Counted from the first letter of the stretch, positions 3,234-41,791 are shown. The stretch is 64,000 nucleotides of DNA from Candidatus Aminicenantes bacterium (GCA_963705895.1 OY970122.1:588744-652743); one strand, 5' to 3'. Program-made: numbers and translations. Notes: generated by a model not told the origin, from the letters alone.

Positions 3234-5678
3234 TCAATCGGACTTTTCCGGAGCCGAACCCGCTTCCTTGAGCGTCTGAGCCAGACGCTGGAGCTCCTGA
3301 TCGACGAGGAAGTGGACCGTTCCCTCCTCGAAGCTGCCGTCCTCTTGGCGTGCCCCGGCCTTCACTCCGGTCAGGATCTCGATGCCGCGGTCGATGGAGT
3401 CAACGGGGTAGATGTGGAACCGGCCTTTCTTGACGGCCTCCACGACCTCCGGCCGGAGCATCAGGTTCTGGACGTTCTGGTGAGGCATGATGATCCCCTG
3501 GGTCCCGGTCAGGCCTTTGGACTTGCAGACGTCGAAGAAGCCCTCGACCTTCTCGTTGATCCCGCCGATGGGCTGGATTTCTCCCATCTGGTTCAAGGAG
3601 CCGGTCACGGCCAGGTCCTGGCGCAGGGGGAGCCGCGACAGGCTGGACACGATGGCGTAGACCTCGGTCGAGGAGGCGCTATCGCCGTCGACCCCGCCGT
3701 AGCTCTGCTCGAAGGCGATGCTGGCCGACATGGACAGGGGCTTGTTCTGAGCGTACTGGCCGCGAAGGTATCCGGCCAGGATGAGCACGCCCTTGTTGTG
3801 GGTCCGGCCGCTCAGGTCGGCCTCGCGCTCGATGTTGATGATGCCCGTTCGCCCGACCGAGGTCTGGGCCGTGATGCGAGTCGGCTTGCCGAAGGCGAAC
3901 TGGCCCATGTCGTAAACGGACAGGCCGTTGACCTGGCCGACCACGGCTCCCTGGGTGTCGATAAGGATGCTGCCCTCATCGATCATCTCCTGGATCTTGT
4001 CCTCAATGAGGCTGACCCTCTCGAACCGTTCCAGGACGGCCCGGTCCACGTGCTTGCGCGTGACCGTGTCCTTCTTGTCCTTCGTCGCCCAGTAGCTCGC
4101 CTCGCGGATCACATCGGCGATGATATTGAACCGGGTGGAGACCTTCTTCTGGCGACCGGCCACCCGGGTGCCGTACTCGATCACCGCGGCGATGCCCTCC
4201 CGGTCGAAGGCGTTCAGCCCGTCCTCCTTGCAGATCTTTTGGATGAAGCTGGCGTAGTCGCCCACGGTCTGGTCCGTCTTATCGATCTCGGAATCGAACT
4301 CGGCCTTGATCTTGAAGATCTTGCGGAACTCCGTGTCCATGAAATAGAGGAGGTTGTAGATCTCGTCCTCGCCGATCATGACCACTTTGACGTTGACCTT
4401 GATGGGCTGGGGCTTGAGACTCTTGGGGCTGAAGAGGAACAGCGAAGCGAAATTCTGGATCTCGAAGGTCTGGTTGCGGAGGGTCCTTTTCAAGGTAGGC
4501 CAGACTCCCGATTCGACGAGCGCGTCCAGGGCGTTGATGATGAGATATCCGCCGTTGGCCTTGAGGAAGGAGCCGGCCTTGATCCGGGTGAAATCGGTCT
4601 GCCAGGCGCCGAAGCGGGCGGGCGCGGATTCGATCGAGCCGAAAAGGTTCATGTAGCTCGGGTTGTTCTCGATGATCACCGGGGCGTGGGTCATCTCGCT
4701 GTTGTCCACGAGAAGGTTGACCCGGTATTCGAGGAAGGGGTCGATGAGCTCCCGTTCCCGCTCGGGAACCTCGTCCTCCTTCTTGGGTCCCTTGAACAGG
4801 TCGATGTTCTTGATGAGGTTATCCTCGACCTCGCCGAAATAATCGACGGTTTGGGGGTAGGGGAAATCGGCGCGCAGGCCGTTCACTCCGTCGTTGATGA
4901 CCGGAGTGATCGCCTCTTCGTCCCAGGACTTGAGGTGGGTCCGGGTGTCCTCCTCTATGTCCCGCAGGCTGCCGAAGACCTGCTCCAGCTTGTCCGATAG
5001 CTCGTCGTAGCGTTTCTTCAGGTCGTCCAGGGCCTCGGGCGGGAACTTCTTGTCCTTGACCAGGGCTTCCAGCTTGGGGAAGGGGGTGGGCACGCCCTCG
5101 ATCACCGGGATGAGGTCGGGTTTGACGAACAGGCCCATCTGGACCTGGATCACCGAAAACCCCTTCTGGGCCACTTCGTCCTCGAAGGCTTTGAGGATGT
5201 TCTGCTGCTGCTTCTGGTGGGACTCGATGATCTCGTTCCGCCGGCCGGAGTAGTACTGGCTCTTGACCAGTTCGGGCACGTTCTGCTTGAGGCGATCGAT
5301 GAGCTTGTTCAGGCTCTCGACGAAAAGCTTGCCCTTGCCCGCGGGCAGGACGATCAGCCGCGGCTCGTCGGTGTTCTTGAAGTTGTTGACGAAGAGGATG
5401 TCATCGGGGATGGGTTCGCCCTTCTTCAACCGCTCCAGAAGCTGCTTGATGGTCGTGGTCCGGCCCGTGCCGACCATGCCGCTGATGAAGATGTTGTAGC
5501 CCAGGGTCTTGATGTCCAGGCCGGTCTTGAGCGACCGGAGGGCCCTCTGCTGGCCGATGATCTCCGCGCAGGGCTCATACTGGGAGGTGGTGGGAAAAAG
5601 GATCTTGTCCGCGGGGCAGGTCCAGCGAAGCTTATTGGGAGTGAGTTCCGGAAACTTGTCCGCCTTCTTGAGGTCCAT
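3234..5678 (-). CDS. Lon-like ATP-dependent protease (AAA+ ATPase + S16 peptidase domain; LonB/LonC/YcbZ-like)
   Basis: Walker A ISGMVGTGRTTTIKQLLERL; C-terminal S16 protease region ...GPSAGIAMFTS...GEIQPIGGINEKVEGF.... Start placed at the ATG (MDLKKADKF) preceded by AAGGAG 6 nt upstream; the ORF is open further to 5744 (alternative start). Confidence 0.75.
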   Translation of the reverse strand: MDLKKADKFPELTPNKLRWTCPADKILFPTTSQYEPCAEIIGQQRALRSLKTGLDIKTLGYNIFISGMVGTGRTTTIKQLLERLKKGEPIPDDILFVNNFKNTDEPRLIVLPAGKGKLFVESLNKLIDRLKQNVPELVKSQYYSGRRNEIIESHQKQQQNILKAFEDEVAQKGFSVIQVQMGLFVKPDLIPVIEGVPTPFPKLEALVKDKKFPPEALDDLKKRYDELSDKLEQVFGSLRDIEEDTRTHLKSWDEEAITPVINDGVNGLRADFPYPQTVDYFGEVEDNLIKNIDLFKGPKKEDEVPERERELIDPFLEYRVNLLVDNSEMTHAPVIIENNPSYMNLFGSIESAPARFGAWQTDFTRIKAGSFLKANGGYLIINALDALVESGVWPTLKRTLRNQTFEIQNFASLFLFSPKSLKPQPIKVNVKVVMIGEDEIYNLLYFMDTEFRKIFKIKAEFDSEIDKTDQTVGDYASFIQKICKEDGLNAFDREGIAAVIEYGTRVAGRQKKVSTRFNIIADVIREASYWATKDKKDTVTRKHVDRAVLERFERVSLIEDKIQEMIDEGSILIDTQGAVVGQVNGLSVYDMGQFAFGKPTRITAQTSVGRTGIINIEREADLSGRTHNKGVLILAGYLRGQYAQNKPLSMSASIAFEQSYGGVDGDSASSTEVYAIVSSLSRLPLRQDLAVTGSLNQMGEIQPIGGINEKVEGFFDVCKSKGLTGTQGIIMPHQNVQNLMLRPEVVEAVKKGRFHIYPVDSIDRGIEILTGVKAGARQEDGSFEEGTVHFLVDQELQRLAQTLKEAGSAPEKSD

Positions 5679-37343: not shown

Positions 37344-37997
37344 ATGAAATCGACTGAGCTCAAAGTCTCTCGTATCGGAAACTCCCGCGGGGTCCGGCTT
37401 CCTGCGGCGTTGTTAAAACGATATCGCATCGGAGCTGCTGTCCTCATGGAGGAGACGAGCGAGGGTATTTTCCTGCGGCCCGTCGGCCCTGTGGTGGAGA
37501 AGCTTTCATGGGAAGATACGGTCCGCGAGATGGCGGCCGGCCGCGAAGACTGGGGCGATTGGGATGCGGTGGACGCGGACGGATTGGAAAATATTCTGTG
37601 GGCAACCGAAGGCGCCGGGAGAATAACGGAAAAGAAAGCCTGGTATCGGTCGGCTCGGCGAATCAAGCAAGAGACCGTTCTGCGTTATGAGATTCGATGG
37701 GTTTCACTGAATCCGACCCAGGGTGCGGAAATGGGGAAGAAACGTCCAGCGGTCATCGTCAGTCTGGACGCGCTCAATGAAAGATTACAGACCGTGACAA
37801 TCTGCCCTCTGACCAGCCGGTTACATCCCTCCTGGCGCTCCAGGTTGCAGGTCCGATGCAATCGACAAGAGGCCGAAATCGCAGTGGACCAGATAAGAAC
37901 TATCGCCAAATCTCGGCTGGGAGCCAAAATCGCCGCGTTGACAGAAGACGAAGCCTCCGCGTTGAGGCGGATTATCACCGAAATGTATGGCGAGTGA
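37344..37997 (+). CDS. fused MazE-like antitoxin (SpoVT/AbrB) and MazF/PemK-like endoribonuclease toxin in a single ORF
   Basis: N-terminal MKSTELKVSRIGNSRGVRLPAALLKRYRIGAAVLMEETSEGIFLRPV... with acidic EDWGDWDAVDADGLENILW tail (MazE/PemI-like). C-terminal ...RYEIRWVSLNPTQGAEMGKKRPAVIVSLDALNERLQTVTICPLTS... (MazF/PemK-like). No stop or canonical internal start between the two halves. Confidence 0.65.
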   Translation: MKSTELKVSRIGNSRGVRLPAALLKRYRIGAAVLMEETSEGIFLRPVGPVVEKLSWEDTVREMAAGREDWGDWDAVDADGLENILWATEGAGRITEKKAWYRSARRIKQETVLRYEIRWVSLNPTQGAEMGKKRPAVIVSLDALNERLQTVTICPLTSRLHPSWRSRLQVRCNRQEAEIAVDQIRTIAKSRLGAKIAALTEDEASALRRIITEMYGE

Positions 37998-38015: not shown

Positions 38016-38043
38016 ATCTTGACATCTTTACAAACAGAGTGAT
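38016..38043 (+). promoter_or_regulatory. near-consensus sigma70 promoter (TTGACA - 16 nt - TGnGATAAT) upstream of the integrase remnant
   Basis: TTGACA at 38016-38021 and extended -10 TGATAAT at 38036-38043; a TTG start with GGGGGA RBS follows at 38072. Confidence 0.3.
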
Positions 38044-38071
38044 AATCTCCATCTATATTAACGGGGGATAT

Positions 38072-38206
38072 TTGAAGACAAGACAGGAAGTAGTTTTCGT
38101 CGCGGAACAAAAAGCCGCTTATTCCGCCCGGCCTCAAAGGTTGCTCGATCGACTTCGCGAGGCGTTCCGCATCCGACATTATAGCCGCCGTACGGAAGAG
38201 ACCTAA
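38072..38206 (+). pseudogene. tyrosine recombinase / integrase N-terminal fragment (IntI/XerD-like), truncated after about 44 codons
   Basis: (M)KTRQEVVFVAEQKAAYSARPQRLLDRLREAFRIRHYSRRTEET* matches the conserved integrase N-terminus (IntI1: ...[24 protein letters not shown]...). The rest of the recombinase is absent in all frames downstream. Confidence 0.4.
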
Positions 38207-38326
38207 TGACCGATCGGGCACTCGTTTCACAAGCGTCTAATTCATCACATGAAGTCGCATCCGGGTTGTTATATGGATCTATGTAAACATTGTTAGCTCA
38301 ACGTAAACATTAGAGGGAGACTCTCA

Positions 38327-39490
38327 ATGACAAAGAAGACTACGCCAATCGGAAGTGAAACAGCGGCAAAGAGGGCATACCTGAAGCAATCAGATGTGCC
38401 TTCCGCTTCCTTAGAAGAAGCACTTCGAATGCCAGAGGCAATCCTCGATCATTATGCAGGAAAGGCGACTACACCATTACAGGTTGCCAAAGCCTTGAAC
38501 GTGGATCCAAAAGGCTCACAGATTCGTGTTCTTTCGGGGGCCGCAATGGCTTTTGGCCTCATCGAAGGGGGTGCGCAAGCAACTAACATTTCTGTGACCG
38601 ATCTTGCACGACGAATTCTTCGCCCTAAAGAGGAGAATGATGATCTGGCTGCAAAACGAGAGGCAGTTTTGAAACCCAGAGTTTTCGGTGATTTTCTTCG
38701 CCAATATGACGGTAATGCCTTCCCCCGTCGAGAGATCGCATTGAATGTACTCGAAGAAATGGGAGTACCACGTGAGAAGACAGAGGAGGTTCTTGAACGA
38801 ATTGATGCTAGTGCACGCTCCGTAGGCTTTATCGCGGAGATTAGGGGGAAAAATTATGTCACTCTCCAAGGAGCCGCGACTTCCATTACCGCAGATGTAT
38901 CAAGTTCCGAGATAAGTCCAGAACCCGAGCAAGAGAAACTAACCGCACCGGAGATCAAGAGATTGACGATCCCCCCTCCTATCGTACAGCCGAAAGGAGC
39001 TGCACTTACTGCTGCTATCGCAGACGACCAGAGACGCCGCCGGGTGTTCATTACGCACGGTAAAAACAGAGACTTGGTAGAGCCAATTAAAAAACTCTTA
39101 GAGTATGGTGAGCTAGAGCCAGTGGTTTCTGTCGAGAAGTCATCTGTATCCAAACCCGTCCCTGAAAAAGTTCTGGATGACATGAGGGGCTGTGGAGCGG
39201 CAATTATCCACGTAGAGGTGGAGCAAATGATTGTCGACAGGGAGGGGAATGAACATGTTTTATTAAATCCCAATGTCCTAATTGAAATAGGTGCCGCCAT
39301 GGCTTTCTATGGTCGGCGGTTTATTTTATTAGTCCGGGAAGGGGTGAAACTGCCATCGAATCTTCAGGGCCTTTTTGAGGTACGGTACGGTGGCGATACC
39401 TTGGATGCAACTGCTACTATTAAGCTACTCGAAGCTATTAAAGATATCAAGAACTATGATCTCCCCACACAACCAGAGGTTGAGAGCTAA
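38327..39490 (+). CDS. two-domain protein: unknown N-terminal domain + C-terminal TIR-like nucleotide-binding domain (PF10137 / CAP12-like); candidate defence effector
   Basis: AGGGAG RBS. C-terminus RRVFITHGKNRDLVEPIKKLLEYGELEPVV...NPNVLIEIGAAMAFYGRRFILLVREGVKLPSNLQGLFEVRY matches the VFIVHG...LGLEPI...RQNVIFELGYFIGKLGR.RV..L...GVE.PSD..G pattern of the TIR-like family. Markedly lower GC than flanking genes. Confidence 0.55.
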   Translation: MTKKTTPIGSETAAKRAYLKQSDVPSASLEEALRMPEAILDHYAGKATTPLQVAKALNVDPKGSQIRVLSGAAMAFGLIEGGAQATNISVTDLARRILRPKEENDDLAAKREAVLKPRVFGDFLRQYDGNAFPRREIALNVLEEMGVPREKTEEVLERIDASARSVGFIAEIRGKNYVTLQGAATSITADVSSSEISPEPEQEKLTAPEIKRLTIPPPIVQPKGAALTAAIADDQRRRRVFITHGKNRDLVEPIKKLLEYGELEPVVSVEKSSVSKPVPEKVLDDMRGCGAAIIHVEVEQMIVDREGNEHVLLNPNVLIEIGAAMAFYGRRFILLVREGVKLPSNLQGLFEVRYGGDTLDATATIKLLEAIKDIKNYDLPTQPEVES

Positions 39491-39500
39491 CTAATGAATC

Positions 39501-39526
39501 CAGCGGACGGCTTTCAGCCTCCGCTG
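39501..39526 (+). terminator. stem-loop between the TIR-like gene and the next ORF (possible attenuator/terminator)
   Basis: CAGCGGACGGC-TTTCA-GCCTCCGCTG imperfect inverted repeat 10 nt after the stop; no T-tract; followed by a strong RBS (GAGGGAGGAGG) for the next gene. Confidence 0.25.
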
Positions 39527-39557
39527 TTCCGTACGTAATGAGGGAGGAGGCCTTTGC

Positions 39558-40094
39558 ATGAGGCTATGTGCTTTTGGTGGCGTGGTTCTTGCTATGGTCG
39601 CGCTATCGGGGCAAGCGATGGAATCTCCCGCCCAGAGTCCGACGCCTGCTGAGATCAAGGCTGTGGACGCGTTCATAAAAACCCAAGAGCGACTCCGGAG
39701 CACGCAGTACGTCTCGGATAACTTGCTTGAGTTTCGCGAGGGGCGCCAGTATGCGTTTGACGAAGCCGGCGGGAGCGGCAAGACGATACTCGCTGTGCGT
39801 TATACTTTGGAGGAGGGCAACAACTGGACTCTATTCCTCGCAGCCTTTTCAAGGCCGACAATGAAGTGTCAAGCCCACGCACGGGTGGGTGGCAAGGGCT
39901 ATCGCAACGTTGATATTAGCGGGGTTAAGGGCGATATGATCTATTTGAAGATCGAATTGTACTCAACCTACGACGCTCTCTGTTGTCCCAGCGTCCCTGG
40001 CTCAACAATCTACGAACTGACCGACGATTCGCTCGTCGAAAAGGAACTTCGGGTCGACTGCGAGGGTTGGAGGCCGCCAGAGAGGCGAAGATGA
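39558..40094 (+). CDS. hypothetical secreted protein (signal peptide, 4 Cys)
   Basis: MRLCAFGGVVLAMVALSGQA signal peptide; strong RBS; low GC; no recognisable domain. Confidence 0.45.
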   Translation: MRLCAFGGVVLAMVALSGQAMESPAQSPTPAEIKAVDAFIKTQERLRSTQYVSDNLLEFREGRQYAFDEAGGSGKTILAVRYTLEEGNNWTLFLAAFSRPTMKCQAHARVGGKGYRNVDISGVKGDMIYLKIELYSTYDALCCPSVPGSTIYELTDDSLVEKELRVDCEGWRPPERRR

Positions 40095-41187: not shown

Positions 41188-41718
41188 ATGGCTGAAGTTT
41201 GTCGTTATTTGAAAAACATGAACTTGGAATTCACGACAGTGCTTAATCAAGAACGAGGCACTATCGCGGCACTGCTGAAGCGGGCCTACGCCGATTTGGT
41301 TAAGAGCAATCCATTGCTATGGGAACCTGAGCAGGCGAAATGGGATCAATACGATCATGATGTATTTGCGCAGCCGCAGACTATCGGGGCCTGCATATTT
41401 CTTACCTGGCTGGATGGCCGGATAGCCGGGTTTGGATCGTGGGACCCGCGACAGAGGCCTCGCTTCGGCATCGTCGGACACAACTGTATATTGCCGGAGT
41501 ATAGAGGAAAGGGTTTGGGCAAACTGCAAATTCGTGAAATCCTTCGACGCTTTCAAGAAGTGGCGATTAAGACGGCTAAAGCTTCTACCAATGACAGCCC
41601 CTTCTTTGTTCCCGCTCAGCGGATGTATGAGGCGTGCGGATTCCGAGAAATCCGACGTATTCCCTGGCATCGCGATCCAGGACAGAGGATAATCGAATAC
41701 GAGAAGGAAATCGGCTAA
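41188..41718 (+). CDS. GNAT-family N-acetyltransferase
   Basis: ...FGIVGHNCILPEYRGKGLGKLQIREILRRF... acetyl-CoA binding motif (R/Q-x-x-G-x-G/A); alternative start at 41218. Confidence 0.7.
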   Translation: MAEVCRYLKNMNLEFTTVLNQERGTIAALLKRAYADLVKSNPLLWEPEQAKWDQYDHDVFAQPQTIGACIFLTWLDGRIAGFGSWDPRQRPRFGIVGHNCILPEYRGKGLGKLQIREILRRFQEVAIKTAKASTNDSPFFVPAQRMYEACGFREIRRIPWHRDPGQRIIEYEKEIG

Positions 41719-41791
41719 AAAAGAGCTCCAGCGGACATGGACGAGCCGCGCCGCTGAGCTATGACGTTAGATCGCAGGGGAGGTGGGGAGC

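Follow-up and report, generated by a model that had tools for sequence, protein, structure and literature searches.

Among Toll/interleukin-1 receptor (TIR)-like proteins of the Pfam family PF10137, the members of known function, Cap12 and PycTIR, are effectors that degrade nicotinamide adenine dinucleotide (NAD+) (Pfam description; PMC9402430), and in the filaments formed by TIR-STING it is the assembly of the TIR domains that completes the active site (PMC9402430). Experimental work (Kieffer 2025; Darracq 2025; Getz 2025) has found integron cassettes to be enriched in anti-phage genes that are small and stand alone. Here we describe a gene with a PF10137 domain in a 64,000-nucleotide (nt) stretch of DNA from a Candidatus Aminicenantes bacterium (GCA_963705895.1 OY970122.1:588744-652743), in the following referred to as the window, which an initial annotation made from the sequence alone had put forward as a candidate undescribed defence effector. 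The gene encodes a protein of 387 amino acids (aa) and is a former cassette of an integron that has decayed; we propose, at about even confidence, that its product is a stand-alone, single-protein sensor-effector for abortive infection.

Results

The C-terminal domain is TIR-like and carries an invariant Asn/Glu motif

The open reading frame (ORF) is complete, contains every residue that is invariant in the family and is preceded by a ribosome-binding site (GAGGGAG, 8 nt 5' of the ATG). As the initial annotation had predicted for about residues 245-370, the C-terminal part belongs to PF10137 (CAP12-PCTIR_TIR), which matches aa 239-354 at E=9.2e-18 with a score of 64.8 bits (cutoff 24.7), over positions 1-117 of the 119 in the profile; no NCBIfam model matches the protein. 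An alignment of 62 diverse family members, 61 of which are likewise matched by PF10137, resolves into two conserved blocks around a variable linker, with mean pairwise identities of 0.59 and 0.57 in the two N-terminal units, 0.13 in the linker and 0.72 in the TIR-like domain. The motifs VFITHG, NPNVLIEIGAA and LPSNLQGL, which the initial annotation had already picked out, are present and invariant across the family, and N316 and E320 of the N-x-x-x-E motif are identical in all 62 sequences.

AlphaFold predicts aa 20-180 with a predicted local distance difference test score (pLDDT) above 90 and the TIR-like domain also with confidence, while the linker is predicted to be disordered at aa 187-224. 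Foldseek searches with the C-terminal domain return the TIR domains of TIR-STING at the top (9lmq and 7un8, E about 1e-5), followed by BcmB, DNPH1, MyD88 and SARM1, and the family profile matches PycTIR (8jsj, E=2.4e-6) in a region that spans the NV-x-x-E-x-G and LPS-x-x-x-GL motifs. The active site of SfSTING contains N80 and the catalytic E84 (PMC9402430), with the same spacing as N316 and E320; judged from this spacing and from the PycTIR alignment, the two pairs of residues are probably equivalent. The linker had been described as Pro-rich, which is only moderately true of the window copy; across the family it is acidic (mean charge -8), disordered and poorly conserved.

The N-terminal domain is predicted to be a tandem winged helix

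The initial annotation had left about 230 N-terminal residues unassigned. With respect to domain libraries this holds, as no Pfam, NCBIfam or PHROG model matches the N-terminal 190 aa of the window protein or of any of the 62 family members, and searches with the domain sequence gave nothing significant among PDB sequences, Pfam, NCBIfam and PHROGs. The folded part, however, is limited to approximately aa 15-185, and structure prediction combined with fold comparison now permits an assignment. Predicted in isolation, the domain (predicted template modelling score 0.79) consists of two winged-helix units at about aa 29-98 and 105-178, the second of which includes an invariant NVLEEMGV motif (aa 140-147); 13 Lys/Arg residues of the domain are conserved. 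The best whole-domain structural matches, over 137-148 residues, are BrxA of the bacteriophage exclusion (BREX) system and FokI-type DNA-recognition domains, and a fold search against viral proteins yielded only generic MarR and FokI-like matches. We are confident in assigning the predicted fold to the tandem winged helices of the BrxA/FokI type. Multi-winged-helix modules of the BrxA type have been described as DNA-recognition units that recur in several BREX variants, among them PglW, which bears a kinase (PMC12839542). Membership in the BrxA family itself (DUF1819) finds no support, with neither a Pfam DUF1819 match nor a BREX context.

Reuse is also seen for the domain described here. An exhaustive search with the N-terminal domain alone retrieved 1,277 representative clusters, and the architectures of the best 150 were classified. 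In 64 of these the domain is joined to a TIR-like domain, whereas six carry another C-terminal region of at least 110 aa, which in four cases (P0249, P0283, P0327 and P0359; 518-555 aa) is a Ser/Thr protein kinase (Pkinase) in place of the TIR-like domain. Another 16 are essentially the N-terminal domain alone (tail below 40 aa), 18 look like fragments of it, and 46 have a tail of 40-110 aa, several of them truncated or frameshifted TIR copies and others ending in a small recurring C-terminal tail. Short recurring tails of about 35 aa (for example ...hxIxIhIxxDxxxxQIDxIFESMxxHLY) were noted in P0243, P0298 and P0315 as well as in P0331 and P0339, none of which has a TIR or kinase domain; they might represent a third, minimal type of effector or serve in oligomerisation.

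The gene is a former integron cassette

The gene is framed by cassette borders (Table 1). The GTTAGCT motif 5' of the start codon and the AGCTAAC motif that lies over the stop codon at the 3' end (39485-39491) are exact reverse complements of each other, and the former sets the cassette start at 38293. For the recombination sites we used a covariance model of attC built from ten sites at four unrelated loci, since an earlier scan by regular expression and folding had been too unspecific; of the 18 base pairs in the model 9 are backed by compensatory changes, and the R box, the unpaired spacer and the L box with bulged bases can all be recognised in it. Its third-ranked match in the window (39490-39536, plus strand, 14 bits, E=0.2) begins at the stop codon of the TIR gene, and we estimate the chance of a match with this E-value falling within a few bases of the stop codon and on the correct strand at roughly 1e-5. 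The R' box of this site departs from the expected GTTRRRY, and when the bottom strand is folded the inner hairpin is retained (z=-3.4) with the R boxes unpaired; an intact site at one of the homologous loci (L010) pairs end to end.

The close relatives of the gene come from other phyla. In 13 of 16 of them a GTTRGSY motif stands 15-32 nt 5' of the start codon and an ...RGCTAA(C) motif at the stop codon, and in five loci (L002, L003, L010, L011 and L035) an intact attC of 33-69 bits follows directly 3' of the gene; in L006 intact attC sites lie just upstream of it. Significant attC sites among the homologue loci are confined to close relatives (at least 70% identity) and are always on the strand of the gene. 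Cassette borders are lacking in L007, L008 and L009 and in every relative at 64% identity or below. The loci of close homologues resemble cassette arrays, with small, unrelated genes on the same strand (SnoaL, cupin, glyoxalase, GNAT, BrnT/BrnA), and L003, L011, L033 and L034 are genuine arrays. Locus L003 contains more than 20 copies of an element of 126-130 nt that begins with ...CTAAC TATGCG and ends with ...CGCGGAC GTTAGNC, the signature of attC, and its homologue is flanked by GTTAGCT upstream and by AGCTAAC overlapping the TAA stop codon. As the attC of the window copy is decayed and those of its orthologs are intact, the window copy is an ex-cassette. The DNA similarity between the window and L031 begins exactly at GTTAGCT; the sequence 5' of this motif is not common to L031 or L032, and therefore no common attI can be defined. 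In a further close relative, L012, the attC position (5315-5400) is occupied by five tandem copies of AAAGGTTTCAGC.

The surroundings are those of a decayed integron, for which the literature provides precedents: integrases in decay, clusters of attC that lack an integrase, and cassettes inserted outside integrons. Upstream of the gene lies a remnant of about 44 codons from the N-terminus of a tyrosine recombinase, which points toward the cassettes ("inverted" orientation). It matches Pfam PF13495 weakly (E=0.037), and a tblastn search of all plasmids (7.3 Gb) gave six weak matches (E 8e-3 to 7), three of which (Kovacikia, E=8e-3; Aquabacterium, 70% identity over 27 aa, E=0.1; IntI1, E=7) carry an annotation as integron integrases, the remainder being unannotated; no NCBIfam model matches it, and no matching integrase was found in the homologue loci searched. 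This weak but consistent similarity suggests that the remnant is integron-integrase-like, in agreement with the integrase remnant named by the initial annotation. A 69-nt inverted repeat with perfect ends (GCGGAAC...GTTCCGC, 38102-38170) lies within it. A near-consensus promoter, 280 nt 5' of the TIR gene and on the same strand, lies where it could transcribe both the remnant and the first cassette, in the manner of an integron Pc promoter.

Table 1. Positions of the features discussed, counted from the first letter of the window
Feature	Position	Strand	Remarks
Sigma-70-like promoter, TTGACA-16-GATAAT	38019..38046	+	11/12 consensus matches; best in 37-43 kb
Tyrosine-recombinase (integron-integrase-like) N-terminus remnant, ending ...RLLDRLREAFRIRHYSRRTEET and stop	38072..38206	+	Weak Pfam/tblastn matches; same orientation as cassettes
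5' cassette border GTTAGCT (attC/attI R' core, crossover between G and TT)	38292..38298	+	28 nt before ATG
Whole gene	38327..39490	+	Tandem winged helix, disordered linker, TIR-like domain; ORF listing, full-length homologues
N-terminal domain, aa 15-185	38369..38881	+	Two winged-helix units; proposed sensor or DNA-recognition module
Linker, aa 186-235	38882..39031	+	pLDDT <50 at aa 187-224; pairwise identity 0.13
TIR-like domain of Cap12/PycTIR type, aa 236-380	39032..39466	+	PF10137, Foldseek, PycTIR profile match
Codons N316-V-L-I-E320, putative active-site Asn and catalytic Glu	39272..39286	+	Translation NVLIEIGAA
Decayed attC	39485..39541	+	R'' AGCTAAC on stop codon; inner hairpin CCAGCGGAC...TCCGCTG kept; R' now GTAATGA
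Well-preserved attC after GNAT gene, second attC of relic array	41713..41772	+	34 bits, E=1.6e-6, full-length, top match in 64 kb

The GC content is 0.48-0.52 over 37.5-39.5 kb and 0.60-0.63 in the flanking DNA (0.48 for the gene itself, 0.61 for its flanks), bearing out the low-GC region reported initially. Upstream, an ORF at 37344-37997 (plus strand) encodes a MazE (AbrB/SpoVT-type) antitoxin and a PemK/MazF toxin domain in one uninterrupted frame of 217 aa, which is the toxin-antitoxin neighbour that had been named; a MazF relative of at least 90% identity exists as a separate protein of 106 aa (P0374), and the single ORF is either a natural antitoxin-toxin fusion or the result of a lost stop codon. 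The TIR cassette is followed directly by an ORF of 178 aa (39558-40094, plus strand) with a signal-peptide-like N-terminus, which has no match in Pfam, NCBIfam, PADLOC or PHROG and forms a singleton cluster in a collection of 15 billion proteins. SDR, DUF4440/SnoaL and DUF6790 genes lie tightly spaced and on the same strand around the GNAT gene and its attC (together 41188-41772, plus strand); they have no detectable attC of their own and may be older, fully decayed cassettes. Only two attC-like sites are left in the window, and the model finds none where the 178-aa ORF, the SDR gene and the DUF4440 gene end, so the array cannot be fully delimited. A tRNA-linked island was considered and rejected, as the window contains no tRNA genes; no Rfam families were found in it either. 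The low GC, the toxin-antitoxin gene and the integrase remnant on which the initial annotation had based a defence island are thus all present, but the setting is that of a decayed integron cassette array and not of a generic defence island.

The family is widespread and has crossed phyla

The protein is no rarity, as the family counts more than 4,800 database proteins, annotated as "TIR domain-containing / nucleotide-binding protein". Full-length homologues of the window protein reach 71-83% identity, and copies in Lysobacterales, Planctomycetota, Azonexus and other groups share 74-82% identity with it; for the LysRS of the host, the identity to the nearest relatives that have a name, Candidatus Aminicenantes, is about 70-72%. 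Because the protein is more similar to these distant copies (74-82%) than the host LysRS is to that of its own relatives (about 70%), and because the GC content of the gene is 0.48 versus 0.61, the gene has been transferred horizontally between phyla. Patescibacteria, Bacteroidota, Chloroflexota, Nitrospirota, Actinomycetota and Mycobacterium have more distant relatives, full-length and at 36-65% identity, which are not in cassettes; we conclude that the family is old and widespread and that integrons captured one of its clades. A copy in a Solirubrobacterales metagenome-assembled genome (L030, 10001-11071) is split over three frames and appears to be a pseudogene. In Thermodesulfovibrionales (L014, about 3620-3700) a non-cassette copy stands directly 3' of a tRNA-like sequence recognised by eye, which would suggest an island-type insertion there.

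No conserved partner gene accompanies the family

An all-against-all comparison of the ORFs within ±6 kb of the gene at 28 loci, in which a cyclase, ThsA and an antitoxin were sought, revealed no conserved neighbour, so that the protein acts alone or with unlinked factors. In the window itself the neighbours are MazEF, the 178-aa ORF, SDR and GNAT, and, as stated in the initial annotation, neither a cyclase nor SAVED nor another partner adjoins the gene. Of 81 nearest neighbours scanned at 22 non-cassette loci, most are housekeeping genes and a few are known from defence (restriction-modification of Types I, II and IIG, SoFic, patatin, DndB, mad2 and PDC-M50A). The closest homologue (82%; L031, 2422-7164) lies directly 3' of the Type I restriction-modification genes hsdM and hsdS on the same strand with its cassette borders kept, and could be a cassette insertion at a non-integron site. 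We rate the guilt by association as moderate and regard the cassette status as the stronger contextual argument for defence.

Discussion

Proposed mechanism and the points that weigh against it

In the mechanism that we propose, the tandem winged-helix module would recognise nucleic acid or another conserved infection cue, and binding would gather the TIR-like domains and thereby complete the N316/E320 active site. The assembled enzyme would then hydrolyse NAD+, and growth would stop before phage progeny are made. By analogy, protection of bacteria from phages is the most likely role of the family. PADLOC matches and cassette status make the defence effector of the initial annotation a credible candidate, although its role in defence is deduced and the neighbours of non-cassette copies are mostly housekeeping genes.

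Several observations do not sit easily with this proposal. The N-terminal domain is conserved to a degree unusual for a phage sensor (57-59% mean identity, with the invariant NVLEEMGV), and the genes next to non-cassette copies belong mostly to housekeeping functions. The fold of the C-terminal domain is also near that of BcmB and DNPH1, which are nucleotide N-glycosidases, and this leaves room for a substrate other than NAD+. In the window the attC is decayed and the integrase gone, and the gene may consequently be silent or merely tolerated there. Finally, no member of the family has been examined experimentally according to the literature searched.

A bolder version of the proposal is put forward tentatively, as one that we would not expect to hold in full. 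Here the double winged-helix sensor would read some conserved trait of invading DNA, be it a modification, an end or an intermediate of replication, the DNA would act as the scaffold of the TIR NADase, and integrons would spread the gene from phylum to phylum as a ready-made cassette; with the sensor reused in front of kinases, this would amount to a new sensor superfamily and a widespread single-protein immune system. The alternative fusion to kinases offers a natural experiment on what the N-terminal domain senses.

Alternative explanations

The nearness to glycosidases could mean that the TIR-like domain acts on nucleotides or DNA as an N-glycosidase of the MilB/BcmB/DNPH1 type, directed by the winged helix to (modified) phage DNA or nucleotides; such a function would still be defence, but we consider it unlikely. 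Foldseek does place the CMP N-glycosidase BcmB and DNPH1 just behind TIR-STING, an N-terminal domain of the DNA-recognition type would suit a DNA-directed enzyme, and integron cassettes are rich in anti-phage DNA glycosylases, albeit of other folds. Membership in PF10137 at 65 bits speaks for an NADase instead, as do the closest solved relatives by both structure and profile, TIR-STING and PycTIR, which are NADases, and no TIR-like DNA glycosylase is described in the literature searched. We judge it similarly improbable that the protein has no part in phage defence and instead regulates through DNA binding or forms an addiction-type module, with a TIR-like domain that either binds a nucleotide or is a toxin stabilising cassette arrays and mobile elements. 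The database annotation as a predicted nucleotide-binding protein, the very high conservation, which is atypical of fast-evolving sensors, the housekeeping neighbours of non-cassette copies and the toxin-antitoxin cassettes that accompany the gene would all fit such a role. Yet the invariant catalytic Asn/Glu motif points to an enzyme and not to a domain for binding, the N-terminal domain has been swapped onto kinase effectors, the distribution is sporadic and horizontally transferred, and neither a cognate antitoxin nor a conserved partner was found at the 28 loci.

In the window, an integrase reduced to some 44 codons, decayed R boxes of the attC and just two attC-like sites in 64 kb are what would be expected of an inert, unexpressed relic in a dead integron. 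The ORF, however, is uninterrupted and keeps all the invariant residues, whereas the copy in L030 is pseudogenised; its ribosome-binding site is good, and a promoter close to the consensus lies upstream on the same strand, so that we give the relic only a small chance. Smaller still, to the point of being very improbable, is the chance that the protein is a Thoeris-like, signal-producing TIR (ThsB-type sensor) with its effector elsewhere in the genome: bacterial TIR domains often make signalling nucleotides and the protein does have a sensor-plus-TIR layout, but the 28 loci share no conserved neighbour, a single-gene cassette that moves across phyla cannot depend on an unlinked effector, and the PF10137 members of known function are NAD+-degrading effectors. 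Of these readings, the single-protein sensor-effector for abortive infection has the best support.

Comparison with known systems

The initial annotation held that the protein does not match a described architecture, and this is supported by the searches. PADLOC, which it had proposed to run, returns only matches to the candidate system PDC-S35 and to TIR effectors of the cyclic-oligonucleotide-based anti-phage signalling system (CBASS) and of the pyrimidine cyclase system for anti-phage resistance (Pycsar), nearly all over aa 226-376, and the combination of a tandem winged helix with a TIR-like domain is not described in the literature searched. For CBASS, there is neither a STING or SAVED Pfam match, the N-terminal domain being a predicted tandem winged helix, nor an adjacent CD-NTase cyclase; for Pycsar, no pyrimidine cyclase (PycC) is adjacent and no cyclic nucleotide monophosphate-binding domain is present; for Thoeris, none of the window neighbours matches ThsA, in addition to the lack of a conserved neighbour at the 28 loci.

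Cap12 TIR-STING and PycTIR are nevertheless the closest described relatives, as they share the Pfam family, are the best structure and profile matches (the PADLOC match to PycTIR, E=4.8e-7, is confined to aa 230-375) and have the same N-x-x-x-E motif; by analogy, NAD+ depletion activated by oligomerisation would be the expected mode of action. The window protein is set apart by the lack of a STING or cyclic-nucleotide-binding domain, of a gene for a CD-NTase or a pyrimidine cyclase nearby and of any conserved partner. Compared with TIR-STING the order of the domains is also reversed, with the putative sensor N-terminal and the TIR-like domain C-terminal. PDC-S35 is likewise a single-gene candidate with a related TIR-like domain, proposed from guilt by embedding without experimental support (Payne et al., bioRxiv 10.1101/2024.01.29.577857), and our literature search by this name found nothing. 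Five of its models match at E 6e-12 to 3e-6 over aa 226-363 and over only part of each model; one, PDLC05007, covers aa 144-350 and so extends into the second winged-helix unit. The models, of 231-278 positions, represent mainly the TIR part, whereas the double winged helix of 170 aa is left uncovered and the N-terminal 140 aa of the protein are unmatched.

On the sensor side, BrxA and the DNA-recognition domains of FokI and N.BspD6I have no detectable sequence similarity to the N-terminal domain described here, which moreover is joined to an enzymatic effector and, in the window, has no BREX or restriction genes adjacent. The proposed logic, in which nucleic acid would induce TIR oligomerisation and NAD+ depletion, resembles that of SPARTA (short prokaryotic Argonaute-TIR) and other TIR NADases triggered by nucleic acid. 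In SPARTA, however, the sensor is Argonaute/APAZ and not a tandem winged helix, and the TIR subfamily is unrelated; the window protein would have no requirement for a guide, its mechanism being deduced by analogy.

With respect to the vehicle, the closest parallels are the bacteriophage-resistance integron cassettes (BRiCs) and the cassettes of sedentary chromosomal integrons (SCI), with which the family shares the form of a compact single-gene cassette with an attC, in arrays with toxin-antitoxin, GNAT and glyoxalase cassettes; the family itself is not reported in the accessible papers on integron defence cassettes. Those that were tested come from Vibrio chromosomal and clinical mobile integrons, whereas the family described here comes from environmental Acidobacteriota, Proteobacteria and Planctomycetota, and the integron in the window is defunct. 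If our proposal is correct, a compact one-gene immune protein of 387 aa, with a trigger domain absent from domain libraries, would occur in thousands of bacteria from the environment, as far apart as Patescibacteria and Mycobacterium. TIR effectors as such are known, and one with a novel sensor is not in itself surprising to specialists; what we rate as new is a TIR-type abortive-infection effector with both a new sensor and a new vehicle, the integron, and it is the broad, integron-carried distribution across phyla that was unexpected. Since the tested integron defence cassettes are taxonomically narrow, a confirmed family would widen the picture to integrons outside Vibrio and clinical plasmids that carry TIR-type immunity across phyla.

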